A stretch of 64,000 nt of DNA from the NCBI GenBank assembly GCA_963845185.1, contig CAWJRG010000010.1, positions 352,001 through 416,000 of the forward strand, in the 5' to 3' direction. Below, piece by piece: positions 4,044-57,587 of the stretch. The translations under genes and the position numbers were made by a program. The stretch is from an uncultured bacterium. GTDB taxonomy: Bacteria; Oederibacteriota; PGYV01; CAWJRG01. How positions within the stretch are numbered: the stretch's first letter is position 1; each line of letters opens with the position of its first letter. Below the pieces are notes generated by a model, which saw only the letters and a list, made by a program, of their open reading frames with translations, was not told the DNA's origin and ran no database searches.

Positions 4044-4137
4044 CTTAAGATCGTTTGTTTTGTCAAGCCGTCAACAGGCGCAGGCAAAACATTACGAGAT
4101 TAAGTACCCGCTCAAGTCCCAAAGGGACAAGCGGTAC
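4044..4137 (-). ncRNA. Candidate structured 5'-UTR RNA, copy 1 (before MoxR)
   Basis: Sense strand ACCGCTTGTCCC-ttt-GGGACTTGAGCGGGT, then hairpin TCGT-aa-TGTTTTGCC-tgc-GCC-tgttgac-GGC-tt-GACAAAACA-a-ACGA, ending at the AAGGAGG RBS. Confidence 0.6.
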
Positions 4138-4146
4138 TTGATATCA

Positions 4147-4262
4147 TCGTTTACTTTGCCAAGCCGGCCTTGCTCCCCATTAACAAGGGAGTTAAATATC
4201 CCCGTGGGATGTTTAACGGGCAGAAGTCATCTTGTTATTCCAAAATATGCCTTTTCTACCCA
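4147..4262 (-). repeat. Partial second copy of the leader RNA element, long variant with a nested palindrome
   Basis: tcgtttactttgccaagccg, gttaaatatccccgtgggatgtttaacggg, aagtcatct and ctaccca are shared with the 19922-20087 copy. Confidence 0.5.
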
Positions 4263-4376
4263 AGAAAGGGGGTTTGCTTTGTCTTTCGTAGAGCCAACCC
4301 TAATGGCTATCTCTTTTTGAGACGCCCATTAGGGGTATCTCTACAAGAACAATTTTTTGCGATAGGTCTGAGACCT

Positions 4377-4559
4377 TTACATTTTGTTTTTTTGTAATTT
4401 TTTCTTTCTCACCGGGATTACTTGGTATGCGATGAGATTTTTATATTCTTTGTCGTTACCGAATATGTTTTTACAGATTTCCCGCCTTTGTTCCTCTGTG
4501 ACTTCCACAAATTTTTTCTGTGGCTTTCGTTTTTCTTTATCTTTCATTTTTTGCCTCAT
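4377..4559 (-). CDS. Small basic hypothetical protein, first gene after the sigma54 promoter
   Basis: 60 aa ORF with an AAGGAGG RBS about 7 nt upstream. Confidence 0.55.
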   Translation of the reverse strand: MRQKMKDKEKRKPQKKFVEVTEEQRREICKNIFGNDKEYKNLIAYQVIPVRKKKLQKNKM

Positions 4560-4636
4560 AGCACGCCTCCTTTTGCATTCGATATTCAGTATTTAGAATG
4601 CCAAATTCCAAATCCTGAATTACTGAATACATATAG

Positions 4637-4652
4637 AGCAAGGCTTATGCCA
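4637..4652 (-). promoter_or_regulatory. sigma54 (-24/-12) promoter
   Basis: Minus strand TGGCATAAGCCTTGCT = GG-N10-GC, close to consensus. Confidence 0.8.
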
Positions 4653-4702
4653 TAAAAACGGAATAAAGATAAAGGATTTTATAGAATTGGGTAAAAGGAA
4701 GC

Positions 4703-4715
4703 GTCAAAAATTGAC
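4703..4715. promoter_or_regulatory. Putative bEBP upstream activating sequence
   Basis: Palindrome GTCA-AAAAT-TGAC, 52 bp upstream of the -24 GG; the same motif occurs at 10575 and 10593. Confidence 0.6.
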
Positions 4716-4728
4716 AGAAATATTATAT

Positions 4729-5388
4729 TTATACTAGAGTATTTAAATCTATTAAATCCTCAGGCATTATGATAGAAACAACTCTAAATTTAAGTGATCT
4801 TTTTGCTGATCCTTTTCTCCATCTGTTATTAATTTCAGTATTAGTATCTATTTCAAAATCAATTTTATGATTTTTTATACTGTTATTTAATTTTTTACTA
4901 CAAAATAACAACAATATATTTTCAATTTCCTTTTTTTTAGTGTTTTCAAATGTATCAATTTTATCCATAATATTTTTAAAATTGTTATAAAGAATAGATT
5001 TTGATTCTTTTTTTTCTTCACTAGCGAACCACTTAATAAAATCATCAACTTTTTTCCCGATTATTTTGTAATGGTCTTGATTTCTCTTTTTGTTTAATAT
5101 GTAACTTTGTAAAAACAAATGTCTTAGAACTTGACGTGCTTTTACAACTATTCTATCTTTTTTTACTTCTTGCGATTTTTCCCACTTGCTTTCAATTAAA
5201 TATATTTTACTATTAGTTTTAATTATTGCATCGAATTCCCCAATCGCAGGTGAAGTGCCACGCCCAAAACTTGGTCTATAAAAAATACACTTAATTGATT
5301 CATTATTTACTAATTCCTTGACTTTGTCATCTTGCTTTAAAAACCATAATGTCAATGCATCTTCCCCATAACCAATAATTGGTAACAT
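4729..5388 (-). CDS. Putative PD-(D/E)XK nuclease-like protein
   Basis: GEFDAII...IYLIESKW fits D...ExK spacing; AT-rich gene. Confidence 0.55.
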   Translation of the reverse strand: MLPIIGYGEDALTLWFLKQDDKVKELVNNESIKCIFYRPSFGRGTSPAIGEFDAIIKTNSKIYLIESKWEKSQEVKKDRIVVKARQVLRHLFLQSYILNKKRNQDHYKIIGKKVDDFIKWFASEEKKESKSILYNNFKNIMDKIDTFENTKKKEIENILLLFCSKKLNNSIKNHKIDFEIDTNTEINNRWRKGSAKRSLKFRVVSIIMPEDLIDLNTLV

Positions 5389-5430
5389 AAAATACCTCCT
5401 TTAGAATTTACAAATTATTTAAACACTATA

Positions 5431-6213
5431 TTAACAGGCGCGAGAAGCATTTGTTTTTCCTGCTATATTTTGCATCCGTTGTCCATGTTTTGGCATTGCA
5501 AATTTTGATTCTATATTCAGATGATCGCTTTTAACAATTTCAAGGACTTCATTCCAAAATCTTAAGCGATCTTCTTTTACATATACAAATGCAGGTACTA
5601 TTTTTTTTCGAATTACCGGCCTTTCAAAAATTTTAGCCGAATAACTACAAGGTATATAACTATATGGTATTTTACTTTTATCCATTTGACCAAAATACAA
5701 CCTGAATTCTGTTTTATTATCAATAATCCTTCTTATAGTTATTTCAAAATATTCTTTTGGTACATCTCTGCTTTTCTCCTTCAATTTAATTATTAATTCT
5801 TTCTCATTTTTATAATTTATAAAATCATCTACTACAAAAACAGTATCTAAAACAAATTTTCTTTTAATATTCGAACCAAAATATATTATTGAATCTTTCC
5901 CCAAATTTCTAAGAATTTTGCATCGTGGTTGCCTACAAACAGTATATAAAAAAATCCCACCAAACACAAACGGATCTGTATTCTGGAAAGCAGGCGGCAT
6001 GATAAAAACCGGTCTGTGTATTTGTGTATTTTTATCTTTTATACTAGGAGGTTCCCACTCGCCCCAAAAATAGATTTTTTGTTCATTTTCAAGAATTGCT
6101 TCGAGAAATTTCCTGTTATGTTTTTTATTATTCCATTCCACATATCCTGTTTCATCAGAAACAGATTCATCTTTTCCCGGATGCATAAAAAATAAAGATT
6201 TAATTTTTCCCAT
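5431..6213 (-). CDS. Hypothetical protein, weakly reminiscent of nucleotide-modification-associated (Nmad2-like) domains
   Basis: 260 aa, overlaps the upstream stop; motifs FWGEWEPPS and NTDPFVFG..FLYTVCRQ. The family call is tentative. Confidence 0.6.
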   Translation of the reverse strand: MGKIKSLFFMHPGKDESVSDETGYVEWNNKKHNRKFLEAILENEQKIYFWGEWEPPSIKDKNTQIHRPVFIMPPAFQNTDPFVFGGIFLYTVCRQPRCKILRNLGKDSIIYFGSNIKRKFVLDTVFVVDDFINYKNEKELIIKLKEKSRDVPKEYFEITIRRIIDNKTEFRLYFGQMDKSKIPYSYIPCSYSAKIFERPVIRKKIVPAFVYVKEDRLRFWNEVLEIVKSDHLNIESKFAMPKHGQRMQNIAGKTNASRAC

Positions 6214-6967
6214 GTATAATCGCCTTTCCTATCCCCACTTTATCTAGATTGCTAACCGTTCCAAAAGGCATATTTGCTGCCTTCCCCCAATGAATATTTG
6301 GAAATTTACCTTCTCCGATTTCTATCACTGCCTTTTTAACATAAAAAGGATTATCCCTTTCAATTGTATAGTAGTTCTCCCATTTTTTATTAAATTTAAA
6401 TTTGATTTTTTGAAGATATCTTTCAGCCATTGATATTAAAATAATATCAGGTTTTAAACAACTTACAAGTTCGTGCCATAAACCTATTCCTTCTGCCTCA
6501 AACAAATTTTTATCATTATCATTCAACCTGCTCCATGTCGGGTCTGTTGCGATTGGTGTCATAATATCTGTATGCAAAGCTGTATTTGCTTTCCTTGCGT
6601 AGTAGCTGCAATCCATGCCATTTAAGATTGGCTCATATGAATTAAACCATAATTTATAGGGGCTATAACTAAAATATTTGTTTAAAGTCATTAAATAATC
6701 ATCAACAGGTTTTTGGTTCTGTAGAATTGCATCTTTTATCTTTTCCCCGCCTTCAAATCTTAAAAATGCGTCTTCTTCCGGGAACTCTATCTTTGACGGA
6801 TTAAGACCAACAGTAATAACTTTAGTCATTGAAGCAAAATACGTCCTATAATCGCCAAAATATAAAATTGGAATAGATTTTTTAACTACGTTGCCGTTAT
6901 CGTAGTTTTTGATAAAAACATCAAAAGCTTTTTCAACTACTGAAAGCAATTCTTCTTGCATTTTCAT
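6200..6967 (-). CDS. Uracil-DNA glycosylase superfamily-like protein
   Basis: VITVGLNPS (UDG motif-1-like) and LKPDIILIS; AT-rich. Confidence 0.55.
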   Translation of the reverse strand: MKMQEELLSVVEKAFDVFIKNYDNGNVVKKSIPILYFGDYRTYFASMTKVITVGLNPSKIEFPEEDAFLRFEGGEKIKDAILQNQKPVDDYLMTLNKYFSYSPYKLWFNSYEPILNGMDCSYYARKANTALHTDIMTPIATDPTWSRLNDNDKNLFEAEGIGLWHELVSCLKPDIILISMAERYLQKIKFKFNKKWENYYTIERDNPFYVKKAVIEIGEGKFPNIHWGKAANMPFGTVSNLDKVGIGKAIIHGKN

Positions 6968-6977
6968 GTGCCCGCCT

Positions 6978-8345
6978 CTACAATTTAATGCATTTCCCTT
7001 TCTCCGGCAGTATTACTTTCTCGCAGAAGTTCTTGAAAGCCTCTGCGTTTTCGGTATGTACGGGTATGACAGTATCCGCGTTCACGCCGTCTATCATCTT
7101 TCTCACGCCTTCCTCGTCGGCGTGGCCCGAGCAGTGTATCTGCGCGAGTTTCACGCCAAAGTGCCCCAGCCAGTTTTCCAGGCATTCCCTGTATTCCTCG
7201 TTATCCTCGCCTTCGATATAGTGCTCTGACATGGAGTAAATGAAAGTCCCGCTTTTGGGCTGTATGTCCACCATCTGCGAGAGCTCTGAAGCTGTCACGA
7301 ACATTACCACGTCGCCTGTGTTCTTTTTCACCCACTTATAATCCACGCATTCCTCAAAATAAGGTTTCTGGTAATTATATATCCTTTTTTCATCATCAGG
7401 TATGTCGCTGTTTTTGTTGAATATCTTCATTTTGGTATTGCCGATTGTCTTTGGCAGGTCGTCAATGAGCTCCCTTGCGTTATCTATTGTATATGCAAAT
7501 CCCGGATTTACAACGAGCACTTTGCCTGCGCGTGCAGTCGCATTATACAGGCTCCTGACCCTATCCACGTTCCTGAAAGAAAATTGCGCGAACGTTATGC
7601 CGTCTGTCTTTTTTATGGTGTCGCAAAGCGCGTCTTCCACGTCGCATTCCCGCATTTTCTTTTTAAATATGGTGTCCCTGTTGTTCTTTACCCTGGTTCC
7701 TTCGGTTATCAGCACTTTTACCTTTGCTTTTGCCGCTGCTTTGATAAAATCTTCTGTCATTTCAGGCCTGAAACCGTGCAGACGAAAATCGCCTGTGTAC
7801 GCAATATTTCCTTCTGGCGTTTCAATGATAAACCCATATGCGCCTGGTATGGAGTGGTCCATATGCACAGGCGTGACAGTAATGTCCCTTATTTTAAATT
7901 TCTTCCCTGTTTTCATTTCCACAATATTTTCACCGGCTTCTGTCTTGAAACTCGGGTAAATGGTATTAAACGCCTCGTTTAGTTTATTCGCGCCGTGTCC
8001 GAGATAAACAGGTATGTCAGGGTCTACATAAGCCACGTCTCCTATATGGTCGCTGTGTATGTGGGATATAAGAATGGCGTCAATGGTGGGCTTTTTATAT
8101 TTCATATCCGTGTAATATAAAGCGTCCCGTGAATACACGCCCTGTATTTCCGGCATCATTCCAAATTCAAAATAGTCCCTAAGCCCGAGTTTTTCCCTGG
8201 GCTCCAGATAATCAAAACCGCTGTAAATTCCTGCGCCTCTGTCAAAAGGTATCCCGAAATCTAAAAACACTCTTGCCTTTCCCGCCTCCAGCAGTATCTT
8301 GTTCCCGCCTATCTCGCCCGCTCCTCCGTATGCTGTTATCTTCAT
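6978..8345 (-). CDS. MBL-fold beta-CASP (RNase J-like) nuclease
   Basis: GGAGEIGGN, LDFG, HIHSDH, HSIPG, YTGDFR, EGT, HCSGHA and PVHTE motifs. Confidence 0.88.
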   Translation of the reverse strand: MKITAYGGAGEIGGNKILLEAGKARVFLDFGIPFDRGAGIYSGFDYLEPREKLGLRDYFEFGMMPEIQGVYSRDALYYTDMKYKKPTIDAILISHIHSDHIGDVAYVDPDIPVYLGHGANKLNEAFNTIYPSFKTEAGENIVEMKTGKKFKIRDITVTPVHMDHSIPGAYGFIIETPEGNIAYTGDFRLHGFRPEMTEDFIKAAAKAKVKVLITEGTRVKNNRDTIFKKKMRECDVEDALCDTIKKTDGITFAQFSFRNVDRVRSLYNATARAGKVLVVNPGFAYTIDNARELIDDLPKTIGNTKMKIFNKNSDIPDDEKRIYNYQKPYFEECVDYKWVKKNTGDVVMFVTASELSQMVDIQPKSGTFIYSMSEHYIEGEDNEEYRECLENWLGHFGVKLAQIHCSGHADEEGVRKMIDGVNADTVIPVHTENAEAFKNFCEKVILPEKGKCIKL

Positions 8346-8896
8346 TATTTTCCGCCTTTCTTTTCATTTTTCCATATAGATTCAAAGTTTCTTTTTAAAT
8401 CTGAATATAGTGGTTTAAAAACTTCAAATTGATTCATTACATGCGTTTGCGGGCTTAAATGGGTTACATAATATATGGATTTTACCTTTTTAAGTTTACC
8501 TGAAAATATATAATCTTTTATGGCCTTCTGCGTTTCTTTGCCAAAGACAACTATCGAATCATAATTATTAAACCTAATATCTGTTCTTATCTTTTTTTTA
8601 TGATAGTCATTAAGTGTTTTAAAAATATCCGCACACATAACCTCCCCTGCATTTTTATTTTTCAAAATATGTAATACATTAATAAATCTTTCACCAATAG
8701 GGTTAACTTTATTGTTTTTCAAATAGGTTTTTATATTATTTAAATCATTATTGATTTTTTTAAAGCCAAAAACGAACTGCCCTTTTTTCCCTCCTATACC
8801 AGGCGATTGAAACAGCAATAGCCATTTTTTCGCACCACCAAAATTCAGTTTTAAATCCTTATCGGGACGATTCATATTATTAAAATGTTCGGTCAC
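8345..8896 (-). CDS. Divergent uracil-DNA glycosylase-like protein
   Basis: LLLFQSPG, IVVFGKETQ and C-terminal THLSPQ resemble UDG-fold motifs; AT-rich; translationally coupled on both sides. Confidence 0.5.
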   Translation of the reverse strand: MTEHFNNMNRPDKDLKLNFGGAKKWLLLFQSPGIGGKKGQFVFGFKKINNDLNNIKTYLKNNKVNPIGERFINVLHILKNKNAGEVMCADIFKTLNDYHKKKIRTDIRFNNYDSIVVFGKETQKAIKDYIFSGKLKKVKSIYYVTHLSPQTHVMNQFEVFKPLYSDLKRNFESIWKNEKKGGK

Positions 8897-8897
8897 A

Positions 8898-10469: not shown

Positions 10470-10506
10470 ACCTTAGCCTCCTTTGGCCTGTCCGGCTTAT
10501 ATACAG

Positions 10507-10522
10507 AGCAACTACTATGCCG
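10507..10522 (-). promoter_or_regulatory. sigma54 (-24/-12) promoter upstream of the bEBP gene
   Basis: Minus strand CGGCATAGTAGTTGCT = GG-N10-GC, followed by CTGTAT (CTATAT at the 4637 copy). Confidence 0.7.
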
Positions 10523-10550
10523 GATAGGTTATTGAAATTATCTGGATATA

Positions 10551-10579
10551 ATTATACCAGAAGAATGCACAATTGTCAA
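10551..10579 (-). promoter_or_regulatory. sigma70 consensus promoter for the bEBP operon
   Basis: TTGACA-17 nt-TATAAT on the minus strand. Confidence 0.75.
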
Positions 10580-10605
10580 ATTTTGATGATTTGTCAGAAA
10601 TTGAT
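10575..10605. promoter_or_regulatory. Two tandem putative bEBP binding sites
   Basis: GTCA-AATTT-TGAT (10575-10587) and GTCA-GAAAT-TGAT (10593-10605); the first overlaps the sigma70 -35. Confidence 0.6.
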
Positions 10606-11572: not shown

Positions 11573-11573
11573 T

Positions 11574-19352: not shown

Positions 19353-19910
19353 CTATTTCTTTACTTTCGCCATTGTTATTTTTTTCTGCGCCTGGTACTT
19401 GCCCTTTTTGTCTGCGTATGAAACCTCGCATGTTTCTTCAGCCTTTAAAAATATCACCTGGGCAATGCCTTCATTCGAGTAAATTTTAGCCGGCCTTGAC
19501 GTTAGGTTTGCTATTGATATGGTGACAAACCCCTCCCATTCCGGCTCAAAAGGCGTGACATTCACGATTATCCCGCTCCTTGCGTAAGTCGATTTGCCGA
19601 AAGTTATCGCGAGTATGTCCCGCGGTATTTTAAAATATTCCACGCTCCTTGCCAGGACGTATGATTTCGCCGGTACAATGCACTCTTTGCCCTTGTAAAA
19701 AGTAAAATGCCCTTCCAAAAAATTTTTCGGGTCAATGATATGCGTGGCATTGTCGTCAAAAACCTTGAATTCGTCGCTGATGCGCATGTCATAGCCGTAC
19801 GAAGACACGCCGAACGATATTTTTCCCTTTGCGACCTGCCTCTCGCAAAAAGGCTTTATCATTCCTTTCTTTGCCATTTCAATAATCCAGCGGTCGTTCA
19901 TCACTCCCAT
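19353..19910 (-). CDS. dcd: dCTP deaminase
   Basis: SSYGYD, GKSTYARSG, PFEPEWEG, EGIAQ and GKYQ motifs. Confidence 0.95.
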   Translation of the reverse strand: MGVMNDRWIIEMAKKGMIKPFCERQVAKGKISFGVSSYGYDMRISDEFKVFDDNATHIIDPKNFLEGHFTFYKGKECIVPAKSYVLARSVEYFKIPRDILAITFGKSTYARSGIIVNVTPFEPEWEGFVTISIANLTSRPAKIYSNEGIAQVIFLKAEETCEVSYADKKGKYQAQKKITMAKVKK

Positions 19911-19921
19911 AAATAACCTCC

Positions 19922-20087
19922 TTGATTTCGTTTACTTTGCCAAGCCGTCGAAGGCAGTCAGATAGTCCCGTGGACTATTTGACGGGTAATTTCCACAAGT
20001 CATCTAATATAAAAACTACCCAGCAAAGTATTACGAAATCATGTACCCGTTCAAGTTCGAGGCCGTCAGGCCAAGAACAAGCGGTAC
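19922..20087 (-). ncRNA. Candidate structured 5'-UTR RNA, copy 2 (before dcd; long variant)
   Basis: ACCGCTTGTTC..GAACTTGAACGGGT and GATTTCGT-aa-TACTTTGC..GCAAAGTA-a-ACGAAATC, with a ~60 nt insert; ends at the RBS. Confidence 0.6.
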
Positions 20088-20196
20088 AATGAATTTTTAA
20101 ATCTAAAATGAGTTTTATTATATCATATTTTTCTTTCAAAAAAACAGGGTGAATCTAAAGCAAATTATCATCTACTTTGTCGACGGTTTTAAGAAC

Positions 20197-20333
20197 ACCC
20201 CTTCCCCCTCGACGGGGGAAGGATGGAATGAGGGTGACGTAGCATCTGAAAGTGTTTCATTTTGCATATATCCCTTAATGACGTTTTGCCGCCACTTCAC
20301 CCTCTCCTTTTTCCTCTCCCGTCGAGGGAGAGG
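20197..20333. repeat. CCCTCTCCC-type REP-like inverted pair
   Basis: Same family as 1308-1430. Confidence 0.8.
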
Positions 20334-20415
20334 AGACCGCCGATTTTATCGGCGTTAAGTTTAAATTTGACTTTTGATTTATTATATAATAATATGTTGC
20401 GGGTTTAAAAATCAG

Positions 20416-20512
20416 CACCGCTTGTCCCTCACAAGCCCGGGACTTGAGCGGGTACAAGATAGCGTAATGTTTTGTCTTCGCCTGTTGACGGCTCGACAAA
20501 ACAAACGCTATC
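20416..20512 (+). ncRNA. Candidate structured 5'-UTR RNA, copy 3 (before SDR)
   Basis: ACCGCTTGTCCC..GGGACTTGAGCGGGT and GATAGCGT-aa-TGTTTTGTC-ttc-GCC-tgttgac-GGC-tc-GACAAAACA-a-ACGCTATC, then AAGGAGG. Confidence 0.62.
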
Positions 20513-20528
20513 ACAAGGAGGTATTAAC

Positions 20529-21248
20529 ATGCAGGATATGAAAGGAAAAACAGCTGTCGTTACCGGCGCCAACCGCGGCATGGGCTTTGCCATGTCTGAA
20601 AAGCTGGCTGGCCTCGGCGCAAAGGTAATCATGGTTTGCAGGTCTTCAAAAACGGGCGGAGAAGCTGTTTCAAAATTAAAAAGCAAAAATCTTGATGTTG
20701 TCCTGAAAACAGCAGACGTGGAAAATCCCAAGGACATTGAAAAGCTTGGCCGTGAAATATCGGAAAAATTTCCATTGATAGACGTACTAATAAACAACGC
20801 CGGAACAAATACCGAGCCCGGCGAAGTTACAATCGAGACCATTGATATTGCGCTTTTTGAGAAAATCATAAATATAAACCTGCGCGGAACCATTTTGATG
20901 TGTAAATATTTCATACCCATGCTTAAAAAATCCGCCTCAGGCAGGATAATTAATTTTTCATCCGGTCTGGCCCAGCTTTCAGTGCCAAGGATGGGGCCAT
21001 ATCCTTCATACAGTATTTCAAAAACAGCGGTAAATGCAGTCACGAAATTGCTGGCCGACGAGTTAAAAGACACGAATATATTGGTTTTTTCTACTGACCC
21101 CGGCTGGGTAAAAACCGATATGGGCGGGCCAGAGGCGCCTTTGGAAATACAGGAAGGCATTGACACGCCTATATGGCTGGCTATTGAGGATGCCGGCAAG
21201 CTGCAGTCAGGCTATTTTTACAAGGAAAGAAAAATACTGGGGTGGTAA
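20529..21248 (+). CDS. SDR family NAD(P)-dependent oxidoreductase
   Basis: TGANRGMG, NNAG, YSISK and PGWVKTDMGG; start moved to ATG 20529 after the RBS. Confidence 0.92.
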   Translation: MQDMKGKTAVVTGANRGMGFAMSEKLAGLGAKVIMVCRSSKTGGEAVSKLKSKNLDVVLKTADVENPKDIEKLGREISEKFPLIDVLINNAGTNTEPGEVTIETIDIALFEKIININLRGTILMCKYFIPMLKKSASGRIINFSSGLAQLSVPRMGPYPSYSISKTAVNAVTKLLADELKDTNILVFSTDPGWVKTDMGGPEAPLEIQEGIDTPIWLAIEDAGKLQSGYFYKERKILGW

Positions 21249-30329: not shown

Positions 30330-31325
30330 CTAATGTATGTTTTTCTTCATCGAATACCCGAAACTGTCGTATTCAACCGCACTGACAAGCTTTCCGTTTT
30401 TGTAAACTGCTTCTGTCTTCTTTTTTCCGTCCTCAAAATATGCGGTATATGGCCCGTCCTTTCTGCCGTTTATGTAATTTCCCGAAGCTTTTAACTTTCC
30501 ATTTTCATAATATTCTTTGCTGGTACCGCTTTTCCTGCCGTCTTTATACCCGGATTCGGCGTTCAGCTTGCCGTCCGCGTCAAACCATTTATAAACTCCG
30601 TCAAGCTTCCCGTCCTTGTTTGTTCCCTGCCCTGCCAATACGCCGTTCTTATTGTATTGTTTAAAAACGCCTTCTTCTATGCCTTTCTTATATTCAATTT
30701 CAGACTGTTTTTTTCCGTTTTCATAATACCATGCCCAGGTTCCTTCGCGCCTGCCGGCCATATAAGTGCCGGCGCAATTAAGTTTGCCGTTCTTGAAAAA
30801 AATCTCCATCCGGCCTTCCGGGATGCCGTTTTTGTAACTTGATTGCCTGCTCATATTTTCGTTTTCATAATAATCCTTGTATTCGCCGTTAAGCCTGCCA
30901 TTGGATAAAAAATATTCCGATTTAATCTTGCCGTTGCTGAAAAAATCCTTTATTTCCCCGTCTTCCTTGCCTCCTTTTAACCCGAAAATTCCCGCTTTTT
31001 GCCCTGTTTTATAGAACATCTCGTATCTTCCGTCAACAGGTTCGTCGTTTTTATATCTGACTGTTTCATAATACTCACTCCCGTTATTTCCGGATAAATA
31101 AAATTTTACAAGGCCATTTATGCTTTCGCCTTCTTTTTTCAACTCATTGCCTTTTTTATAAACCCAGCTTGCGATTTCCTGGTTATTTGCATAAAAATAC
31201 CTGGTATCGCCCTTTTGCGCGCTTGTAATCTTTGCCTCTTCCGGCTTTGAGCATGATGAAAAAACAGCCCCGGCAAGGACAACCAGCATCATAAAAATTT
31301 TGGTGTATATTTTGTGAGTAGACAT
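30330..31325 (-). CDS. MORN-variant repeat (YwqK-like) lipoprotein
   Basis: FSSC lipobox and many YYENG/NGK..G repeats; its annotated ATG lies inside intron domain VI. Confidence 0.85.
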   Translation of the reverse strand: MSTHKIYTKIFMMLVVLAGAVFSSCSKPEEAKITSAQKGDTRYFYANNQEIASWVYKKGNELKKEGESINGLVKFYLSGNNGSEYYETVRYKNDEPVDGRYEMFYKTGQKAGIFGLKGGKEDGEIKDFFSNGKIKSEYFLSNGRLNGEYKDYYENENMSRQSSYKNGIPEGRMEIFFKNGKLNCAGTYMAGRREGTWAWYYENGKKQSEIEYKKGIEEGVFKQYNKNGVLAGQGTNKDGKLDGVYKWFDADGKLNAESGYKDGRKSGTSKEYYENGKLKASGNYINGRKDGPYTAYFEDGKKKTEAVYKNGKLVSAVEYDSFGYSMKKNIH

Positions 31326-33218
31326 CTTTTATAACCTCCTTTGGTTACTTAATGCCCCTCTCAGAACCGAACGTGACCGTTTCGGTCATTCGGCTCCACG
31401 GGAATACTTCCTAATACGATGACAGCGAATAGGTTAAATGATATATCCTGGGTTCCGGCAATGGGTTGTATCTTAGAAAGCGGCAAAACTGTTCCCAGTT
31501 GTAACTTCTTTTCTGGCTTCGCCTGTTTATCCATTTATAGGCGAGCGCACGATTTCTCCAGTAGAATTTTGTTATTTGGGGCATATTACCGCTTATCCCG
31601 TAATAATTGTAGTGGCCCGTTAACTTTCTTCCTAATGCCTGCCACCACTGTTTTAATTCCACAAGATTTCTTACGCTCTTTAGCCAGAAGTTCGTCGCCT
31701 TCATCTTCTGTTTGAATTTTGTACTTGCCGTCCTTCGGCCTAATTTGAAGCCGCCCTTTCTGGTTTTGTCGCAGTAATGAGTAAACCCGAGGAAATCAAA
31801 GGTCGGAATTTTCCCGCCTGTATCTTTGGACTTATACCAGGCGTGGCGCCCGAATACGATTATTCTCGATTTATCTTTGGCGATTTTGAGGCCAAACTTA
31901 TCAAGCCTCTGTCTTAACATTTCGCCAAACTCCTTTGCTTCGCTGTCATATTGGAACAGCACAACAAAGTCATCGGCATAACGTATCAGACTGGCGTATC
32001 CTTTGAGCTGTCTCTTGACATGCCTTTCGAACCACAGGTCTAATATGTAGTGTAGGTAGATGTTCGCCAGTAATGGGCTTAGTATTCCGCCCTGCGGCGT
32101 CCCTTTATCCGTTTCGATAAACTTACCTTCTTCCATAATCCCTGCATTTAATATCCTGCCGATTAACCTTATCAGGTTTGTATCGGCAATCCTTTGCGTA
32201 AGGCATTTCATTAGCCATTTGTGGTTTATGGTATCGAAAAACTTCTCAATGTCCATATCCACTACTGCGTTGACTGGCTTTGTCATTACTTCCTTATCCA
32301 GAATTTTCAATGCCTGATGACAATTTCTGTCAGGCCTGAACCCGTAAGATACTTCGCTGAAGTCTACCTCAAAGATTGACTCAAGAATTTTCTTTACCCC
32401 CATCTGGATTATCTTATCCTCGACGGCAGGTATTCCCAGCGGCCTCTTGTCTCCGTTTGTCTTGGGGATGTAGACGCGCCTTGTTGGTTGCGGTATGTAT
32501 CTCCACGCCTTCATCCTATTGATTAAATCCTTGATATTTGCCTCTTTGTTGACTTCATATTCCTCTATCCTTACTCCGTCAATGCCCGGGGCTTTGTCCT
32601 GTTTTAACTCCCCAAAGCACTCCATTAGAAACTCCTCATTGAGCAGGTGTATCAGCGATGTAAATCTCAATTTTGGATTTTCCTTTGCCCGCATTGTTAT
32701 GGTCATAAGTTTTGTTGCCATTCCGTCTCCACCTCTGTGTGTGGCGGTTGTCTCCCTTATGTCCATACGCATTCCCTCTATCCCCTTTTCTCCATCTACT
32801 TTCGTAGACTTCATCGATACTATGGGATAGTCAGACTGCCGGAACATCTTTTGCGGCTCCTTATCTTTTAGGATTTGTCGCCGCATACTCTCGTTTTGAG
32901 GGTGTCCCGGCTCTCCCGAGTTCATATCTGCTCCTTGACATCTTGACACGGACTTAGACCCCGTCGGATTCCCACTCTCTCGCCTTTTTATGATTGTGGG
33001 ACTGCTGCCTGCTCTTTTATGAAAAATGTCGGCCTCCGACACGTTGGCGATTTCGGGGCTCAATACCTTCACTTGCGTTGTATCCCGATGTCTCCCGCCT
33101 TCCAGCTTCATTTAGCTCGTTGCCTCACTATTTGTGGAATTTGGTATTGGGCTGGCGGCTGACCTTTGCCCAGGCTGGACTTTCACCAGCGCGAACCGAT
33201 ACGCTTTTCTCGGCGCAC
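31314..33218 (-). mobile_element. Group II intron inserted at the start codon of the MORN-repeat gene
   Basis: 5' GTGCGCCG at 33218; domain V GAGCCGAATGACCGAAACGGTCACGTTCGGTTC; domain VI GAGGGGCAT...ATGTCT-A-CTCAC. Boundary uncertain by 1 nt. Confidence 0.88.
31411..32721 (-). CDS. ltrA: Group II intron reverse transcriptase/maturase (no endonuclease domain seen)
   Basis: APGIDG, RPLGIP, SYGFR, GTPQGG, RYADD, FDFLGF, domain X GHYNYY. Likely start MATKL at 32721; the upstream part of the 566 aa ORF is intron RNA. Confidence 0.93.
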   Translation of the reverse strand: MATKLMTITMRAKENPKLRFTSLIHLLNEEFLMECFGELKQDKAPGIDGVRIEEYEVNKEANIKDLINRMKAWRYIPQPTRRVYIPKTNGDKRPLGIPAVEDKIIQMGVKKILESIFEVDFSEVSYGFRPDRNCHQALKILDKEVMTKPVNAVVDMDIEKFFDTINHKWLMKCLTQRIADTNLIRLIGRILNAGIMEEGKFIETDKGTPQGGILSPLLANIYLHYILDLWFERHVKRQLKGYASLIRYADDFVVLFQYDSEAKEFGEMLRQRLDKFGLKIAKDKSRIIVFGRHAWYKSKDTGGKIPTFDFLGFTHYCDKTRKGGFKLGRRTASTKFKQKMKATNFWLKSVRNLVELKQWWQALGRKLTGHYNYYGISGNMPQITKFYWRNRALAYKWINRRSQKRSYNWEQFCRFLRYNPLPEPRIYHLTYSLSSY

Positions 33219-39319: not shown

Positions 39320-39504
39320 TTGCGCCTCCTGTTTTCCTTTTTGATTTACTTAATTCTATTTATATGATTAATTGTTATCTTATATAGCATAATTGATAAT
39401 TTAGTTTCTGTCAAGTATTTTGTTTGATTTTTTAAATCTTCCTCAAATACTATAATTCATTTTAATAGCTTAATTATTGGCATTTAGCAGCTATTTAAAT
39501 GAAC

Positions 39505-39531
39505 AAGCCCGTAGCTTGCGGCCACGGGCTT
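39505..39531. terminator. Rho-independent terminator
   Basis: AAGCCCGT-agcttgcggcc-ACGGGCTT. Confidence 0.6.
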
Positions 39532-39569
39532 GTTACAATAATTTTATAACTTACTATTTAAAAACAAAT

Positions 39570-51173: not shown

Positions 51174-51265
51174 GATTAATGCCTCCCTTTAAATAATTTT
51201 CATATATTTTATCATTTACTCCGCCCCTGTCAAACAAAAAAAGCCCGGAGCTTTCGCCCCGGGGC
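51174..51265 (-). repeat. Conserved unit leader (copy 5)
   Basis: As 41866-41955. Confidence 0.85.
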
Positions 51266-51392
51266 TGTTGTTTTTAATATTATTCCATTTGGCATTTCTT
51301 TAATATTTCCTTCCGAACATCTTTAAGAACTATGTTTGAACTCTTTTTGAACTCCTTGCGGACATCCTCAAAGAACTCTTTCCGGGCGTTAT

Positions 51393-52628: not shown

Positions 52629-52730
52629 TGTGTTTTATTCTATCACGCGCTAAAAACCTTGTCAACAATTTGCTCAGTCAATTGAGCAAATTGCAGTTCA
52701 ATATTATACGCAAATAGTACTATCCCTGAC

Positions 52731-52937
52731 TATTCCCCGGGTTATTCGACGGATAAAAGTCATCGTGATACTCCAAAATATGTTTTTTTCAAAAGGCAAA
52801 GAGGAGTGCTCAACTATTATAAATCTCCCTGCGGCAGAGACCGCAGGGTATTCTAAAGGCATTGATGATTTGAGTAACCTACGGTTTCTCAAACTCTTCC
52901 CTTACAAGGAAACCCCGTGGCAAGACCGACGGGGAAT
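52731..52937. repeat. Cluster of palindromes resembling IS200/IS605-type non-autonomous ends
   Basis: ccctgcggcagagaccgcaggg and accccgtggcaagaccgacggggaat hairpins. Confidence 0.4.
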
Positions 52938-52964
52938 ATGTTTATTTAATCTGTCCAGACTGTA

Positions 52965-53619
52965 ATCGAGTAGGAGTCTGGCGATTAGTTCACCAGCCGT
53001 CCTCTCACACCACCCTGCATGCGGTTCCGCACAGGGCGGTTCCTGAAAATTATAAACAATTTATGCAGCTAACGGTTTATCCTTCAACCATCCGTTTCCT
53101 GACATCTTTTGTTCCGGGTTACTTAACTCTGCGTTTAGTCCTGGCTCGATTGACACACTCGTTAACATCCATGGCTGATTCCGTCAGCCTCCTATGTGCA
53201 GAGCGGAGGGTTTCTATCCTCTCTTGCTGCGTCTCCTCGTCCTGTAGGTTTCAAAGTTTCTTTTTCTCCCTGTTTTCAAGTTCTGCCCTTCGTTTGTGGC
53301 CTCAAACTACTATGGCTTCTGCTGACTCCTCGAATTTTCCTTCGAGGTCTCCCCAGATATCACACTCCCGCTTTCACGCTTATGCCTGCCGCATCTACGT
53401 CCGTACCTCCCGTGCAAGTACTGGACTTTAGAGACATTGGCCTCCTCATCCGATACGTCCGCCTTATATGCGGTTTCTGTTCGTCAGGCCAGCGCTTTGC
53501 CTTTGGCTTCCTGCGGATTCCACCTCACGGTGGACACCCTTGCCATTAAGCTAACGATTCCCCTTGCCGGGTTCGTGAGGAACTTTCATCCCTTATCGGA
53601 TGTGCGCTGCTGGGCGTAC
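52965..53619 (-). mobile_element. ORF-less group IIC intron downstream of a terminator
   Basis: 5' GTACGCCCAGCA directly after terminator ...CCGGGCTTTTTGTTTG; short domain V AACCGCCCTGTGCGGAACCGCATGCAGGGTGG; 3' CTCCTACTCGAT; 655 nt, no RT. Confidence 0.85.
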
Positions 53620-53654
53620 CAAACAAAAAGCCCGGACTTTCGCCCGGGCCTTTT
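53620..53654 (-). terminator. Rho-independent terminator used as the intron target
   Basis: GGCCCGGGCGAAAGTCCGGGC followed by TTTTTGTTTG. Confidence 0.8.
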
Positions 53655-53814
53655 GCTTTATATTATTCTATTCTGTATTCTGCATTCAGCAAACCATCCA
53701 ACCCTCCGGCCTTCCATTCCTCCGCCTTTATTGCCCCGGGCTTATTACTTTTGCTTTATTCTATATTATATATGGCCTTTGGAATACCGATTACCAAATT
53801 CCAAATCTAAAATA

Positions 53815-54237
53815 TTACGGTTTGAACACTTCAACTATATTATTCCCATAATCTGCGACATACACGTTCCCGCTGCTGTCTACTGCTATTCCTTCAGGTG
53901 CAGAAAACTGCCCGTTACCGGTGCAGCAGCTGCCCCAGGAAGTCACAAACATCGCGGTCATGGTAGCTGTTGCGTTTGCGTTGGCTACCATGGTGCATAT
54001 TGCCTGGGCCGTCTGTGTAGCGTTCGGCTAGGCAGTTGACGTTGCCGTGACTGTCGGCGTGTGCGCGGCCACGGTCTGCGTCTCCTGCGCCGCCATCTGC
54101 GTGTCCACCGTCGCCTGCACGTTCTGCGTGGGCTGGGGCGTCGGTGCCGCAGGGTTGCTGGACTTGGAGCACGCCGGAATAATAACCATTATTAAAATTG
54201 TGGTGAAAGTTAAGAGCGCAAATCTGTTTTTTATCAT
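53815..54237 (-). pseudogene. Short NHL lipoprotein interrupted by an in-frame TAG at 54028-54030
   Basis: PAC lipobox; the same TATSTA*PNATQT block as 43613-44179, continuing to ...VEVFKP*. Confidence 0.78.
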
Positions 54238-54286
54238 TTCAACTCCTCCTATTTATTTCGCCGTATATTTTAAAAACAGCGAAATT

Positions 54287-56134
54287 CTATTGGCTGAACA
54301 CCTCTACATACGGGTCGGCATCCGGATCAACAACATACACTTTGCCGCTGTTGCCAACGGCAATGGCCCACGGATACGCAAACTGCACCGAACTGCCCCA
54401 CATTGTTATAAAATCCAGGTTTGACGTAAATTTCTGCACATCTAAACCTTGAAGATCAACGACATACACATTTCCGCTATTGTCCACTGTTACTCCCTGG
54501 GGATTCTCAAACTGCCCTGGCCCGTTCCCATAAGTTCCCCCAATCCCTTGTACAAATACTCCCATTGACGTGAATTTCCATAGCCCTTCGAGATTAACTA
54601 CATATACATAATTTCCGCTGTTGTCTATGGCTATTCCTGCTGGGAAAGTAGAACTTGTCCAAAGAGGATAACTCCACGACTTTATTAACTCTCCCGTTGG
54701 CGAATATTCCATGACATTATAGCCGGCAAAGACATAGATGTTGCCACTGTTGTCTACTGCTATTGTTTTATTGTCAGTAATACCAGCCAGTGTTTTTATG
54801 CATTCACCTGTTGATGTGAATTCAAATACTCCGCCATTATCAATTAAATAAACATTACCGCTGTTGTCCACCGTTATTCCATCAGGTGGCATATAAAAAT
54901 TCCAGCCGCAGGCGCTGCCGTCCCATGCAATTATAAATTGACCGGCTGACGTAAACTCCTCTATTCTCTTATTGCCTGAGTCCGAGACATACACATTCCC
55001 GTTGTTTTTGTTTACGGCCACGCCACCGGGAACGTAAAGCTGCCCGTCTCCGGAACCGGGGCTGCCCCATGCCGACATGTTCATTGCGGTCATTGTTGCC
55101 GTTTCCTGCGCATTCACCTGCGCTGTTGCCGTTGCCTGCGCATTTGCCTGTGCTGTGGCTGTTTCCTGTGCCTGCGCCTGCGCCGTTTCCGCTGCCTGTT
55201 CCGTCGCAGTTTCTGCCGGTGGCAGCGCTGCCGCTGTCTGCGTCGCCTGCGCCTGCGCTGTTGCTGTGCCAACCACCTGCGCTGTTAACTCTGCCTGCGC
55301 TGCGGCTGTCGCCTGCGCCTGTGCCGTTGCTGTGCCAACCACCTGCGCCGTTAACTCTGCCTGAGCCTGCGTTGTGGCCGTTGCCTGCACCTGCATTATG
55401 GCAGTTAAAGTTGCCTGCGCCTGCGCCGTTGCGCCTGCCGTCAGCAGTATTACAGCTGTCTGTGTAGCCGGCGCCTCTGCCGTCTGCTGTGCCTGCGCGG
55501 TTGCTGTTTCCTGCGTCTGAATTGCCGCTGCTGTCTGCTGCTGCGCCACTATCGTGGCTATTGCCGCCGCTGTCTGCGTCGCGTTTGGCGTAAGAGTATA
55601 TGTATCAGCCAGCACAGCGGTATAAGTACTTGTTGCGCTGTACCCTGCCGCCGCCGCTGTCTGCTGCTGCGCAACTATTGTCGCGATCGCGGCTGCTGTC
55701 TGCGTGGCATTCGGCGTGAGCGTGAAAGTAAATGTAGGCGTCGCGGTATATCCTGCCGCGCCTGCCGTCTGCTGCTGGGCTACAAGCGTCAAAATTGCCG
55801 CTGCTGTCTGCGTAGCGTTCAGCGTCGGGGTAAGCGTAAATGTTACTGTAACGGTATATCCTGCCGCGCCCGCTGTCTGCTGCTGGGCTACAAGCGTCAA
55901 AATTGCCGCTGCTGTCTGCGTAGCGTTCGGAGTATCCGTGATTGTCGGCGTATTTGTCGGTGAATACAGCTTTATTATCATTGTCTGAGTGGCGTTTGCG
56001 TTTGCCTGCGTGGTCATTATTGCGCCGACCGTGCCCTGCACATCGGGCGTGGACGGTGTTTTTGTTTTCGAGCAGGAATTGGAAAGGATTGCGAATAATA
56101 GAATTCCGACTGCGATTATACCGAACTTTTTCAT
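54287..56134 (-). CDS. Lipoprotein, long T/A/Q stalk + NHL propeller
   Basis: SNSC lipobox; VDNSGNVYV repeats. Confidence 0.88.
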   Translation of the reverse strand: MKKFGIIAVGILLFAILSNSCSKTKTPSTPDVQGTVGAIMTTQANANATQTMIIKLYSPTNTPTITDTPNATQTAAAILTLVAQQQTAGAAGYTVTVTFTLTPTLNATQTAAAILTLVAQQQTAGAAGYTATPTFTFTLTPNATQTAAAIATIVAQQQTAAAAGYSATSTYTAVLADTYTLTPNATQTAAAIATIVAQQQTAAAIQTQETATAQAQQTAEAPATQTAVILLTAGATAQAQATLTAIMQVQATATTQAQAELTAQVVGTATAQAQATAAAQAELTAQVVGTATAQAQATQTAAALPPAETATEQAAETAQAQAQETATAQANAQATATAQVNAQETATMTAMNMSAWGSPGSGDGQLYVPGGVAVNKNNGNVYVSDSGNKRIEEFTSAGQFIIAWDGSACGWNFYMPPDGITVDNSGNVYLIDNGGVFEFTSTGECIKTLAGITDNKTIAVDNSGNIYVFAGYNVMEYSPTGELIKSWSYPLWTSSTFPAGIAIDNSGNYVYVVNLEGLWKFTSMGVFVQGIGGTYGNGPGQFENPQGVTVDNSGNVYVVDLQGLDVQKFTSNLDFITMWGSSVQFAYPWAIAVGNSGKVYVVDPDADPYVEVFSQ

Positions 56135-56223
56135 GATTAATTCCTCCCTTTTAATGTTTTCTATATTTTATCACTTATCCCGCTTCTGTCAAACAAAAAA
56201 GCCCGGAGTCTATGCCCCGGGCC
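56135..56223 (-). repeat. Conserved unit leader (copy 6)
   Basis: As 41866-41955, slightly diverged. Confidence 0.8.
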
Positions 56224-56302
56224 TGTTGTTTTTGCATTTATCTATTCTGTATTCGGCATTCAGCATTCAAGCATTCGAATCCAGAATCCCAAATCTTAAA
56301 GA

Positions 56303-57475
56303 TTACGGATGGAATTTTTCGATTCTATTATTTATAGTGTCTGCAACATACACGTTTCCGCTGCTGTCTATTGCTATTCCAGTAGGCTCACTAAACTGCC
56401 CGTTGCTTGTTCCATAACTTCCCCATTGCGTGATATACGTGCCCGTGCTGGTGAATTCCTGGATTCTATAATTGTTTACGTCCGTTACATATACGTTTCC
56501 GCTGCTGTCTATTGCTATCCACCCGGCGCCATTAAACGACCCATTGCCGCTTCCGGGAGTTGTTGCAGAACTGCCCCATTGTGATATATATGCGCCTGTG
56601 CTGGTGAATTCTTCGATTCTGTTATTATAATAATCTGCAACATATACATCTCCGCTGCTGTTTATTGCTATTCCGACAGGCTCATCAAACTGCCCGTTGG
56701 TTATTCCGGGACTGCCCCATTGTGTGATATATGCGCCCGTACTGCTGAATTCTTCGATTCTGTTGCCATTTGTGTCTGAAATATACACGTTTCCGTTGCT
56801 GTCTGTTGCTATTCCCTGGGGATGATTAAACTGCCCGTTGCCCGTTCCTAAACTACCCCATTGTGTGATATATGCGCCTGTACTGCTGAATTCTTCGATT
56901 CTGCTGTTTCCATAGTCTGCAACATACACATTCCCGCTGCTGCCTACTGCTATTCCAGCAGGACCTCTACTGCCAGCAATAGCCCCAAACTGCCCAATGC
57001 CGTTTCCAAAACTGCCCCATTGAGTTATATATGTGCCTGCACTGTTAAATTTCTGGATCCTGTAATTTAAAGTATCTGCAACATATACATCTCCGCTGCT
57101 ATCTACCGCCACTCCATAAGGATAATAAAACTGCCCGTTGCCGCTTCCCTGGCTGCTCCATGTGGTTACAAACATTACGGTCATTGTCGCTGTCTGCTGC
57201 GCTGAAGTTCCGGCTGTCTGCAGCGCAATAGCTGTTTGTGTCGCATTTGCCTGCGCCGTGGTTGTCTGCTGTGCCTGTGCCGTGGCTGTTTCCTGCGCCG
57301 ATAGCCCGGCTGTCTGCAAATAAACTGCCGTGGCTGTTGCCGCCGCAGCCTGCGCTGTGGCTGTCATGTTGGGTGTGTTTGTTGCTGCAGGACGGGTAGG
57401 GGTAGGCAATTTTTTGCAATTGAATATAATTATGAATACAAATAGAATTAATGCCGGGATTAAGATTTTTTTCAT
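56303..57475 (-). CDS. Lipoprotein + NHL six-bladed propeller
   Basis: FNC lipobox; six GQF..P.GIA.DS.G.VYVAD..N.RI repeats. Confidence 0.9.
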   Translation of the reverse strand: MKKILIPALILFVFIIIFNCKKLPTPTRPAATNTPNMTATAQAAAATATAVYLQTAGLSAQETATAQAQQTTTAQANATQTAIALQTAGTSAQQTATMTVMFVTTWSSQGSGNGQFYYPYGVAVDSSGDVYVADTLNYRIQKFNSAGTYITQWGSFGNGIGQFGAIAGSRGPAGIAVGSSGNVYVADYGNSRIEEFSSTGAYITQWGSLGTGNGQFNHPQGIATDSNGNVYISDTNGNRIEEFSSTGAYITQWGSPGITNGQFDEPVGIAINSSGDVYVADYYNNRIEEFTSTGAYISQWGSSATTPGSGNGSFNGAGWIAIDSSGNVYVTDVNNYRIQEFTSTGTYITQWGSYGTSNGQFSEPTGIAIDSSGNVYVADTINNRIEKFHP

Positions 57476-57487
57476 TTAATGCCTCCC

Positions 57488-57587
57488 TTGATTTCGTTTA
57501 CTTTGCCAAGCCGTCAACAGGCGCAGGTAAAGTATTACGAAATCATGTACCCGCTCAAGTCCGAGCCGCAGGTCCGGACAAGCGGTA
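57488..57587 (-). ncRNA. Candidate structured 5'-UTR RNA, copy 4 (before NHL lipoprotein)
   Basis: ACCGCTTGTCCG..CGGACTTGAGCGGGT and TGATTTCGT-aa-TACTTTACC-tgc-GCC-tgttgac-GGC-tt-GGCAAAGTA-a-ACGAAATCA; lies between a consensus promoter and the RBS. Confidence 0.62.

Follow-up and report, generated by a model that had tools for sequence, protein, structure and literature searches.

The two-hairpin element described here is probably a portable leader module and very unlikely to be a metabolite sensor. Four copies of it lie in a 64,000-nucleotide stretch of DNA (the window, C10:352001-416000) from the genome of an uncultured wetland bacterium (host genome G000; 3.50 Mb in 11 contigs, approximately 42% G+C, 99.4% complete), in which the element occurs at least 146 times. 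The unit folds into two hairpins, P1 and P2, in most cases stands in the sense of a gene directly in front of its Shine-Dalgarno (SD) sequence, and is gained or lost at orthologous sites whose SD and promoter belong to the host gene. Mobility that depends on the fold, with the 5' edge of GGAGG as target, is the most probable reading of the family; once in place, a copy would be transcribed along with the gene as a leader folded on itself and would serve a generic function in cis.

The initial annotation of the window had placed a two-hairpin leader in front of a MoxR, a dcd, an SDR and an NHL lipoprotein gene. All four copies were found again at those places, both on re-reading and by R1, a covariance model built from 43 copies of the host genome (alignment A3), and the Pfam matches agree with the four gene identities. 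A search of the window with R1 returns exactly these copies (83.6-97.0 bits, E 2e-18 to 1e-21); a fifth, weak match at 39437-39538 (E 0.069) is a terminator-like hairpin and not a copy. Each copy lies in the sense of its own gene and ends 1-4 nt before the SD of that gene, as had been proposed, and the divergent dcd/SDR spacer indeed holds one copy for each gene, copy B on the minus strand before dcd and copy C on the plus strand before the SDR gene. The features are as follows.

4039-4137, minus strand: copy A, P1 and P2, 85.2 bits with R1
4040-4046 (SD, AAGGAGG), 4032-4034 (ATG) and 2619-4034 (gene): MoxR-type AAA ATPase gene behind copy A
4138-4170, minus strand: remnant (GGCTTGGCAAAGTAAACGATGATATCAAG) of the P2 3' half of a further copy, directly adjoining copy A at its 5' end
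19916-20087, minus strand: copy B, 83.6 bits with R1, with a 72-nt insertion at the P2 tip
19917-19923 (SD, AAGGAGG), 19908-19910 (ATG) and 19353-19910 (gene): dCTP-deaminase-like gene (dcd, Pfam DCD) behind copy B
20367-20395, plus strand: promoter-like site TTGACT-17-TAATAT of the SDR gene, called by a consensus scan only, 20 nt upstream of copy C
20415-20520, plus strand: copy C, 95.2 bits with R1
20515-20521 (SD, AAGGAGG) and 20529-20531 (ATG): short-chain dehydrogenase (SDR) gene (Pfam adh_short) behind copy C
57482-57588, minus strand: copy D, 97.0 bits with R1
57482-57487 (SD, GGGAGG), 57473-57475 (ATG) and 56303-57475 (gene): NHL-repeat lipoprotein gene (Pfam NHL) behind copy D
approximately 25 nt upstream of P1 of copy D: promoter-like TTGACA-17-TATAAT, read by eye from the sequence

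The gene behind copy A matches Pfam AAA_5, AAA_3 and bpMoxR. The junction between the remnant and copy A (ATCAAG/TACC) matches the unit junction of a tandem array at C9:916571-917176 as well as several 5' flanks elsewhere. Copy B reaches a length of 166-172 nt through a 70-nt nested repeat of a second family in its P2 tip, and joints in DNA reads that skip 71-77 nt at 19945-20025 represent other copies without this insert; the two DNA runs concerned yielded only short contigs, from relatives and from other copies. The three uninterrupted copies are predicted to fold at -33.9, -43.7 and -39.7 kcal/mol, with z scores of -2.5 to -4.0 relative to shuffled sequences.

The unit measures approximately 100 nt, from (R)YACC to a short WWA tail. 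Its limits are set by the array at C9:916571-917176, which contains seven units with a 100-nt period, defines the unit as TACC...ATCAAG and shows no SD between units; the similarity of the youngest pairs of copies likewise ends at the element boundaries. Terminal inverted repeats are absent, the array-defined ends TACCGC... and ...ATCAAG not being reverse complements of each other. In P1, the lower stem and the internal loop are conserved in sequence (ACCNCTTGTCC...GGACTKGARCGGGT), with columns C6, C7, G12 and ACT.GA..GGG invariant or nearly so among the 43 copies, and the top is variable and self-pairing. Other families of the order have the conserved P1 string as well. P2, a long hairpin, contains a fixed GTAA/AAC internal loop, and its stems fall into discrete, internally complementary subtypes (ATAGCG, CAAGAG, ATTTCG, ATCTCG, ATTCCG, ACTCCG, TCGATG and others). 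P1 tops and P2 subtypes are exchanged between copies in a modular manner. The stem strings and compensatory differences quoted in the initial annotation were correct on re-reading; the tip GCC-TGTTGAC-GGC, described there as nearly constant, is so among the four copies of the window but varies across the genome (e.g., GCCTTCGGC). As a side observation, the units of the array stand head to tail, and the last of them is broken by a further insertion.

The covariation seen among the four copies is strong on the scale of the genome. Double pair-preserving changes occur at 21 of the 28 predicted pairs in A3, and 93.3% of alignment cells are paired; shuffling brings this down to 77.8%, none of 500 shuffles being as high as the real alignment, and sliding the partners to 29-44%. 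Copies from elsewhere in the order show covariation at 24 of 28 pairs and 95.6% pairing, in an alignment that is fitted to the model and thereby favours pairing. The copies correspond to no RNA family in Rfam: Rfam 15 at gathering thresholds yields only group II intron families in the whole window and none at the copies, and a search of 19800-20650 in E-value mode gave nothing near gathering score at the copies. This agrees with the earlier statement that no known riboswitch consensus is matched.

The host genome contains at least 146 copies by R1, a lower bound obtained from 150 scored candidates; a loose pattern finds 152 P1 hairpins, and nhmmer finds 204 full or partial matches. Their position and orientation are strongly non-random. 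An SD, a start codon and an open reading frame (ORF) of at least 60 aa follow directly after 113 of the 143 copies with an intact 3' end, against 6 of 143 when the antisense side is subjected to the same test and 12.6% of random positions. Where P2 is closed (119 copies), 76 have GGAG or GAGG beginning 2-6 nt beyond the final pair of that stem, 57 of these at exactly +3; random non-ORF positions give a background of 3.8%. The genome has a marked gene-strand bias: counting ORFs of 90 aa or more, 86% lie on the strand that most of their neighbours use (502 vs 103 on contig C5). Genes on the local minority strand nevertheless carry copies in gene sense (7 of 109 element-bearing genes, that of copy C among them, compared with 13.7% of all ORFs, P = 0.013), so that orientation follows the gene and not replication, with a mild deficit.

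The element shows no preference for a kind of gene. From the 109 downstream genes an evenly spaced sample of 40 was taken, 32 of which have Pfam matches, to mutually unrelated families: ATP synthase alpha, argininosuccinate synthase (ArgG), GatC, MetRS, MurC, PFK, a complex-I subunit, a TetR regulator and other regulators, a solute-binding protein, transporters and beta-propeller lipoproteins, with NHL or Kelch beta-propellers accounting for two of the sampled genes. The upstream gene is co-directional in 73 of the 81 cases that could be placed on a crude ORF map, and its end lies at a median distance of 103 nt from the element, sometimes only 4-24 nt; many copies thus lie inside operon-like strings of genes. 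The 5' flanks of 152 copies have only A+T richness in common, and approximately 12 of them carry the tail of another copy. A terminator-like site after the element was found in 0 of 75 copies of the host genome. Nor was an integron-type array seen: the copies are scattered over the larger contigs before housekeeping genes (atpA, argG, metG, murC), the integron integrase itself not having been searched for.

Filled and empty sites in relatives reveal what belongs to the element and what to the gene. Scanning metagenome contigs with a pattern gave 108 stretches, DNA being available for 80, many of them syntenic with the host genome at approximately 67-91% DNA identity. Among 48 syntenic intergenic gaps (relatives at approximately 72-88% DNA identity), 25 are empty in both genomes and 2 are occupied in both, 13 are occupied solely in the relative and 8 solely in the host genome. 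Viewed from the relatives, 59 distinct copies comprise 13 before a gene that also has a copy in the host genome, 22 before a gene that has none there, and 24 without a detectable orthologue. At atpD, the empty site of the host genome reads TAAATAAACAG/GAGGTTTATATATG (AAACAG/GAGG), and the filled site of a relative reads TAAATAAACAG(TACC...CTTGCTAG)GAGGCTAACATG, that is, AAACAG(TACC...GCTAG)GAGG with the element in parentheses; the element has gone in after the stop codon of the preceding gene and ahead of the SD of the next gene in the operon (atpG-atpD). The dcd/SDR spacer measures 607 nt in the host genome and 197 nt in relative L123, which lacks copies B and C as well as a long inverted repeat. 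L123 still has GAGG-6 nt-ATG upstream of dcd and GGAGG upstream of the SDR gene, together with each gene's promoter-like stretch. The SDR promoter stretch (TTGACTTTT...TATATTAATAT) is kept in L123 and leads straight into GGAGG. All six filled/empty pairs have the insertion at the 5' edge of (G)GAGG, with a junction ambiguity of at most 1-2 nt (AG) and no longer duplication. Because empty sites have the same GGAGG, the same distance to the start codon and the same promoter, both SD and promoter are the host gene's own.

Some sites appear to have been visited repeatedly. At C9:686406-686608 a single copy in relative L146 corresponds to two in the host genome; of these, the distal one is of the L146 subtype and the extra one stands beside the SD, which places the apparently newer copy between the older one and the SD. 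Other shared sites differ in P2 subtype, or in the P1 top on the same P2, and at one site (L083:9252) it is a repeat of another family that adjoins this SD in the host genome. Furthermore, a composite repeat (C6:76200-76560, C10:198760-199100, C9:528000-528400, C9:532300-532700 and C9:918400-918800) embeds the element between a conserved 5' block (AATCCCGCTACGCGAAAATCCCC.GCC.GTAGAGG.GGGGAT.GATAGCGCT.CGG) and a conserved 3' block (GGAGGGAGCATAT.AGAGAATTTTTT...GGTGCTCCGCC...). There too the element has entered at the 5' edge of a GGAGG, in this case within what appears to be another structured non-coding unit.

Copies that stay in place change little. Three clean orthologous copies are 91, 94 and 96% identical, compared with 76-84% for the downstream coding sequence (CDS) and 60-67% for the 80 nt upstream, and this in-place conservation argues for selection on the sequence of the element. 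The median best identity is 88.0% from a relative's copy to a copy of the host genome and 88.6% between copies of the host genome; the equality of the two indicates that the subtypes predate the split of the lineages and have changed little since. The element is not predicted to hide the SD, whose computed accessibility is 0.52 with the element, against 0.45 once the element is deleted in silico (P = 0.052) and a value of 0.47 for 150 control genes (P = 0.11).

Judged by sequence searches, the element is confined to one order of the candidate phylum FCPU426 ("Goldbacteria") among the genomes searched, in which R1 counts outside the host genome are lower bounds and absence means that nothing was found. 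One report equates the FCPU426 16S cluster with Goldbacteria (PMC7031533). R1 matches occur in 11 of 23 other genomes of the same order, with at least 1-17 in each, and in 0 of 75 genomes searched from other orders of the phylum. Two full-length copies from another family (G001) are followed by an SD and an ATG as in the host genome. Matches of a pattern search in a genome collection numbered 20, three of them in metagenome-assembled genomes labelled Flavobacterium, Alphaproteobacteria and Spirochaetia; the first two have neither the P1 5' strand nor P2 and look like chance, and the Spirochaetia-labelled match is a true SD-type copy identical to that of G001. A sister family behaves differently at its 3' side, with a downstream A-run in 11 of 18 copies and a strict terminator-like hairpin in 5 of 18. 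Several of these copies are preceded by TATAAT-like hexamers when read by eye; a promoter scan called none at the sister-family loci and placed the L043 terminator on the opposite strand, that of a convergent gene. Sister-family copies may be stand-alone small RNA genes. A perfect 15-16 bp hairpin (GAATATTTATGAGCT..AGCTCATAAATATTC) often precedes the module in one genus (L043:1370-1412, L045, L072, L079 and L080), and those loci form three-hairpin units, behind which come an A-run and a terminator-like hairpin.

Taken as a mobile leader, the family would consist of lineage-specific, non-autonomous, structure-dependent repeats, new copies of which would be set in one orientation directly 5' of GGAGG. 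Outside genes this motif would nearly always be an SD, so that the element would come to lie between a gene's own promoter (or an upstream cistron) and its SD and would be co-transcribed as a leader. Insertion would be tolerated even inside operons such as atpG-atpD, because each hairpin pairs only within itself and 3 nt separate P2 from the SD, which leaves the SD free and forms no terminator. The folded RNA would then play a generic role in cis, most likely by shielding or insulating the message behind it as a structured 5' block or a processing site; such a role is suggested because old copies at orthologous positions have diverged less than the coding DNA beside them. Among the options raised by the initial annotation, an RBS-carrying mobile RNA element comes closest: a mobile structured leader fits the filled and empty sites, but the ribosome-binding site (RBS) belongs to the gene. 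A bolder version, which must be regarded as rather doubtful, would make the family a new kind of mobile module, in which a fold of approximately 100 nt homes to the 5' edge of GGAGG (in the sister family, to A-runs before terminators) without the known small-element transposases and is kept by selection as a generic leader; a single order would thereby build and reshuffle more than 100 leaders, with free-standing small-RNA versions. Homing might then rest on base pairing with the purine tract, or pass through an intermediate that is RNA or single-stranded. To our knowledge, homing to a ribosome-binding motif has not been described previously.

Three other explanations compete with the mobile leader. 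A riboswitch or another ligand-sensing cis-regulator, as the initial annotation had also suggested, would account for a conserved, covarying two-hairpin structure in sense-oriented 5' leaders that matches no known family. Its presence in at least 146 copies before functionally unrelated genes, combined with the lack of an expression platform (SD outside P2, terminators in 0 of 75 copies, predicted SD accessibility unchanged), makes this explanation extremely improbable, and so does the difference in occupancy between close relatives at orthologous genes with unchanged SD and promoter; moreover, what varies is whole stems in discrete subtypes, and a conserved binding pocket is absent. It could also be supposed that P1 binds one global RNA-binding protein, or a trans-acting RNA partner, so that the more than 100 leaders constitute a post-transcriptional regulon, and that the terminator-flanked copies of the sister family serve as decoy or sponge RNAs, as CsrB does for the targets of CsrA. 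The P1 sequence is indeed conserved beyond the needs of pairing and recurs across the order, orthologous copies are better conserved than the adjacent CDS, and the sister family resembles small-RNA genes in its A-runs (11/18), terminator-like hairpins (5/18) and, in many copies, TATAAT-like hexamers. Occupancy nonetheless differs at most sites (13 + 8 of 23 occupied gaps; 22 relative-only against 13 shared), which would be odd for a selected regulon, the downstream genes have no functional theme, the conserved P1 could equally be a recombinase recognition site on DNA, the terminator at L043 is called on the opposite strand and belongs to the convergent gene, and no candidate protein was identified; a regulon of this kind is thus considered unlikely.

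The remaining competitor, also given a low probability, is purely selfish DNA, whose hairpins would be needed only on single-stranded DNA for strand-specific transposition, the RNA being merely harmless. Such an element would resemble IS200/IS605 ends and their gene-less derivatives, moved in trans by an enzyme that has been lost or is not yet recognised. The lack of terminal inverted repeats and of any target duplication above 2 nt, the fixed orientation beside a short asymmetric motif with hairpins at both ends, and the repeated insertion at one site with the new copy beside the motif all fit this proposal. The minority-strand deficit (7/109 vs 13.7%, P = 0.013) is what insertion on the lagging-strand template predicts, and a second repeat family that parasitises the P2 tip (37 of 43 matches) is expected in an element-rich genome. 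Against it stand the old orthologous copies, which surpass coding DNA in conservation, and a best identity between copies that is the same across species as within the genome, neither being expected of neutral dead copies, as well as the near absence of young copies, and an orientation that follows the gene even on the minority strand (7 cases, copy C included). The host genome, in addition, yields neither a Y1 transposase nor TnpB.

That last result bears equally on the mobile leader, against which several further observations must be set. Y1_Tnp (PF01797) gives 0 matches in the host genome under conditions in which controls are positive in 6 of 14 genomes, and the TnpB zinc ribbon (PF07282) likewise gives 0; of the seven IS110-family genes present, the four identical copies examined sit in a long inverted-repeat family and not in the element. 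Only 6 pairs of copies are at least 93% identical, which indicates no recent burst, and gain and loss could be old, or could partly reflect precise loss or gene conversion among copies. Mixed subtypes at shared sites fit recombination as well as re-insertion, and the in-place conservation, which rests on three pairs, could reflect homogenisation among copies. GGAG is found within 10 nt in 0 of 18 copies of the sister family, so that homing to an SD is not a property of the whole family. A role in insulating the SD was rejected, accessibility being only slightly and not significantly higher with the element. Transcription together with the gene, the action of the hairpins as RNA and the mechanism of landing at GGAGG are matters that we infer. 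Covariation cannot separate RNA structure from a single-stranded DNA structure needed for mobility, and the mismatch counts do not help: 103 distinct copies of the host genome contain 2591 Watson-Crick, 45 G-U, 84 A-C and 128 other cells, with 50 of the 84 A-C cells in three columns (3-47, 4-46 and 68-89), and without these columns G-U stands at 34 and A-C at 39, giving no signal on which strand folds. The UUCG tip of some subtypes fits an RNA tetraloop and its complement fits a DNA mini-hairpin, which is not decisive.

Other candidates for a mobilising activity or an origin were also considered. No RAYT (REP-associated tyrosine transposase, where REP stands for repetitive extragenic palindrome) was detected in the host genome by the Y1 transposase search, and a search with Y2_Tnp was without matches, with controls equally silent. 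The six RVT_1 genes of the host genome belong to group II introns, and nothing ties them to the element. When 5' and 3' halves were paired up to 6 kb apart in search of an autonomous parent, no transposase-bearing version emerged; the one candidate (C10:624278-625719) is a single copy split in P2 by a 1.3-kb insertion without a transposase, which carries a fatty-acid desaturase gene (Pfam FA_desaturase, 36.7 bits) with a terminator-like hairpin upstream. Retro-copying in the manner of short interspersed nuclear elements was rejected on account of symmetric truncation (34 orphan 5' parts vs 32 orphan 3' parts). A group II intron 5' end was proposed by GTGCG after an antisense T-run in one relative (L043) and dismissed since this is absent at other copies; a group II intron fragment was dismissed since Rfam intron models match only 31312-33183 and 52965-53534 and not the copies. 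An anti-SD-like CCTC in the P1 top, considered as a guide, is missing from copies A and D and from several subtypes.

In the full-text literature outside subscription-only sources, a description of this family was not found, and the only, loose parallels are Neisseria REP2 and the TAACTGA repeats. IS200/IS605 ends, palindrome-associated transposable elements (PATEs) and REPs mobilised by RAYTs depend on Y1 HUH enzymes, lack inverted termini and target duplications, have hairpins near their ends and insert in an oriented manner beside a motif of 4-5 nt. The present element shares with IS200/IS605 ends the end hairpins, the lack of inverted termini and oriented insertion beside a short motif; unlike all of these systems, it occurs in a genome without Y1, RAYT or TnpB, its motif stands 3 nt from P2, and its copies are conserved in place. 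The pneumococcal BOX, enterobacterial ERIC/IRU and Neisseria Correia/NEMIS repeats are high-copy, transcribed, intergenic and RNA-folding and can alter the stability or processing of neighbouring messages; BOX is modular; in ERIC and Correia the termini are inverted repeats, and either orientation is found. The element is modular like BOX and resembles all three in RNA folding and co-transcription, both probable for the element rather than observed. It differs from ERIC and Correia in being more than 90% sense-oriented, in lacking terminal inverted repeats and in its fixed 3-nt spacing to the SD; we know of no report of a BOX-, ERIC- or Correia-type repeat at such a fixed distance. Classical miniature inverted-repeat transposable elements (MITEs) are approached in the presence/absence polymorphism at orthologous sites (13 + 8 of 48 gaps) but not in structure, terminal inverted repeats being absent.

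The closest described analogue is Neisseria REP2, to which the IR-A/IR-B repeats of Borrelia plasmids are similar, as far as a comparison by description allows (Delihas 2011, PMC3184786). The same report also names BOX, ERIC/IRU and Correia/NEMIS as intergenic repeats, and describes REP2 as an intergenic repeat of approximately 100-150 bp that has no terminal inverted repeats, is predicted to form two internal stem-loops as RNA and is situated in sense directly upstream of unrelated genes; its origin and mode of spread are given as unknown, its copies as approximately 26, and its genes as co-regulated on cell contact (PMC3184786). Like REP2 as portrayed there, the element lacks terminal inverted repeats, has two internal stem-loops and stands directly upstream of genes. 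REP2 is described as containing promoter, RBS and ATG (PMC3184786), whereas the element stops 3 nt before an SD that, like the promoter, is owned by the host; against the approximately 26 copies of REP2, the element has at least 146, no gene theme, and filled and empty orthologous sites. In marine Beggiatoaceae, a further study reports more than 150 sets of TAACTGA heptamers in one genome, mostly in forward orientation just upstream of unrelated start codons, for which a role in translation was proposed; these are unstructured tandem heptamers that overlap or replace the RBS, an SD being present in only approximately 10% of those intergenic regions (MacGregor 2015, PMC4679880). The element resembles them in standing before unrelated start codons and differs in being a folded 100-nt unit beside a canonical SD.

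If the family is indeed a mobile leader, it has found a low-harm spot for a 100-nt insertion, between promoter and SD and folded upon itself, and has filled that spot in approximately 4-5% of the genes of one genome. A leader that is portable, folds by itself and keeps clear of the SD is reminiscent of the insulator parts of synthetic biology, and the natural pairs of filled and empty alleles make its effect directly testable. For annotation, copies seen in a single window mimic a riboswitch in every visible respect.

Several further repeats and introns accompany the element.

19953-20022, minus strand: nested 70-nt repeat of the second family (TGGGTAG...GACTGCC; two hairpins), inside the P2 tip of copy B
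20199-20336: long inverted repeat (CCCTTCCCCCTCGACGGGGGAAGG ... CTCTCCCGTCGAGGGAGAGG), one of a family of 32 matches in the host genome
31312-33183 and 52965-53534, both minus strand: group II introns (Rfam D1-D4 and domain V/VI, 43.7-139 bits)
C5:749315-749415, C10:695742-695843, C10:122643-122743 and C9:137902-138007: loci of a third nested repeat

The second family (consensus TGGGTAG...ACTACCCGTCAAATAGTCCACNGGACTAT.TGACTGCC) has 43 blastn matches in the host genome, 37 of which lie inside or adjoin the two-hairpin element, typically at the P2 tip, and it looks like a repeat that targets another repeat. Relative L108 lacks the second-family insert at the copy orthologous to C11:157347. The third nested repeat (CTTGACAGAGTTTGATTTTG...AGCGAAGCA.AATCATTACTCTGACA.GTCCATGC.AAGCATGGAG) follows GAGCGG in the P1 3' strand of several copies. 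Members of the long inverted-repeat family contain four identical 1.29-kb insertion sequences (ISs) of the IS110 family (flank ...TCGAGGGAGAGG, IS, ...GAAGGG). IS110/IS1111 elements are known to target REP-like hairpins, and these four insertions fit that habit. Of the six RVT_1 matches, which are identical to one another, one at C10:383780-384469 corresponds to 31780-32469 of the window.

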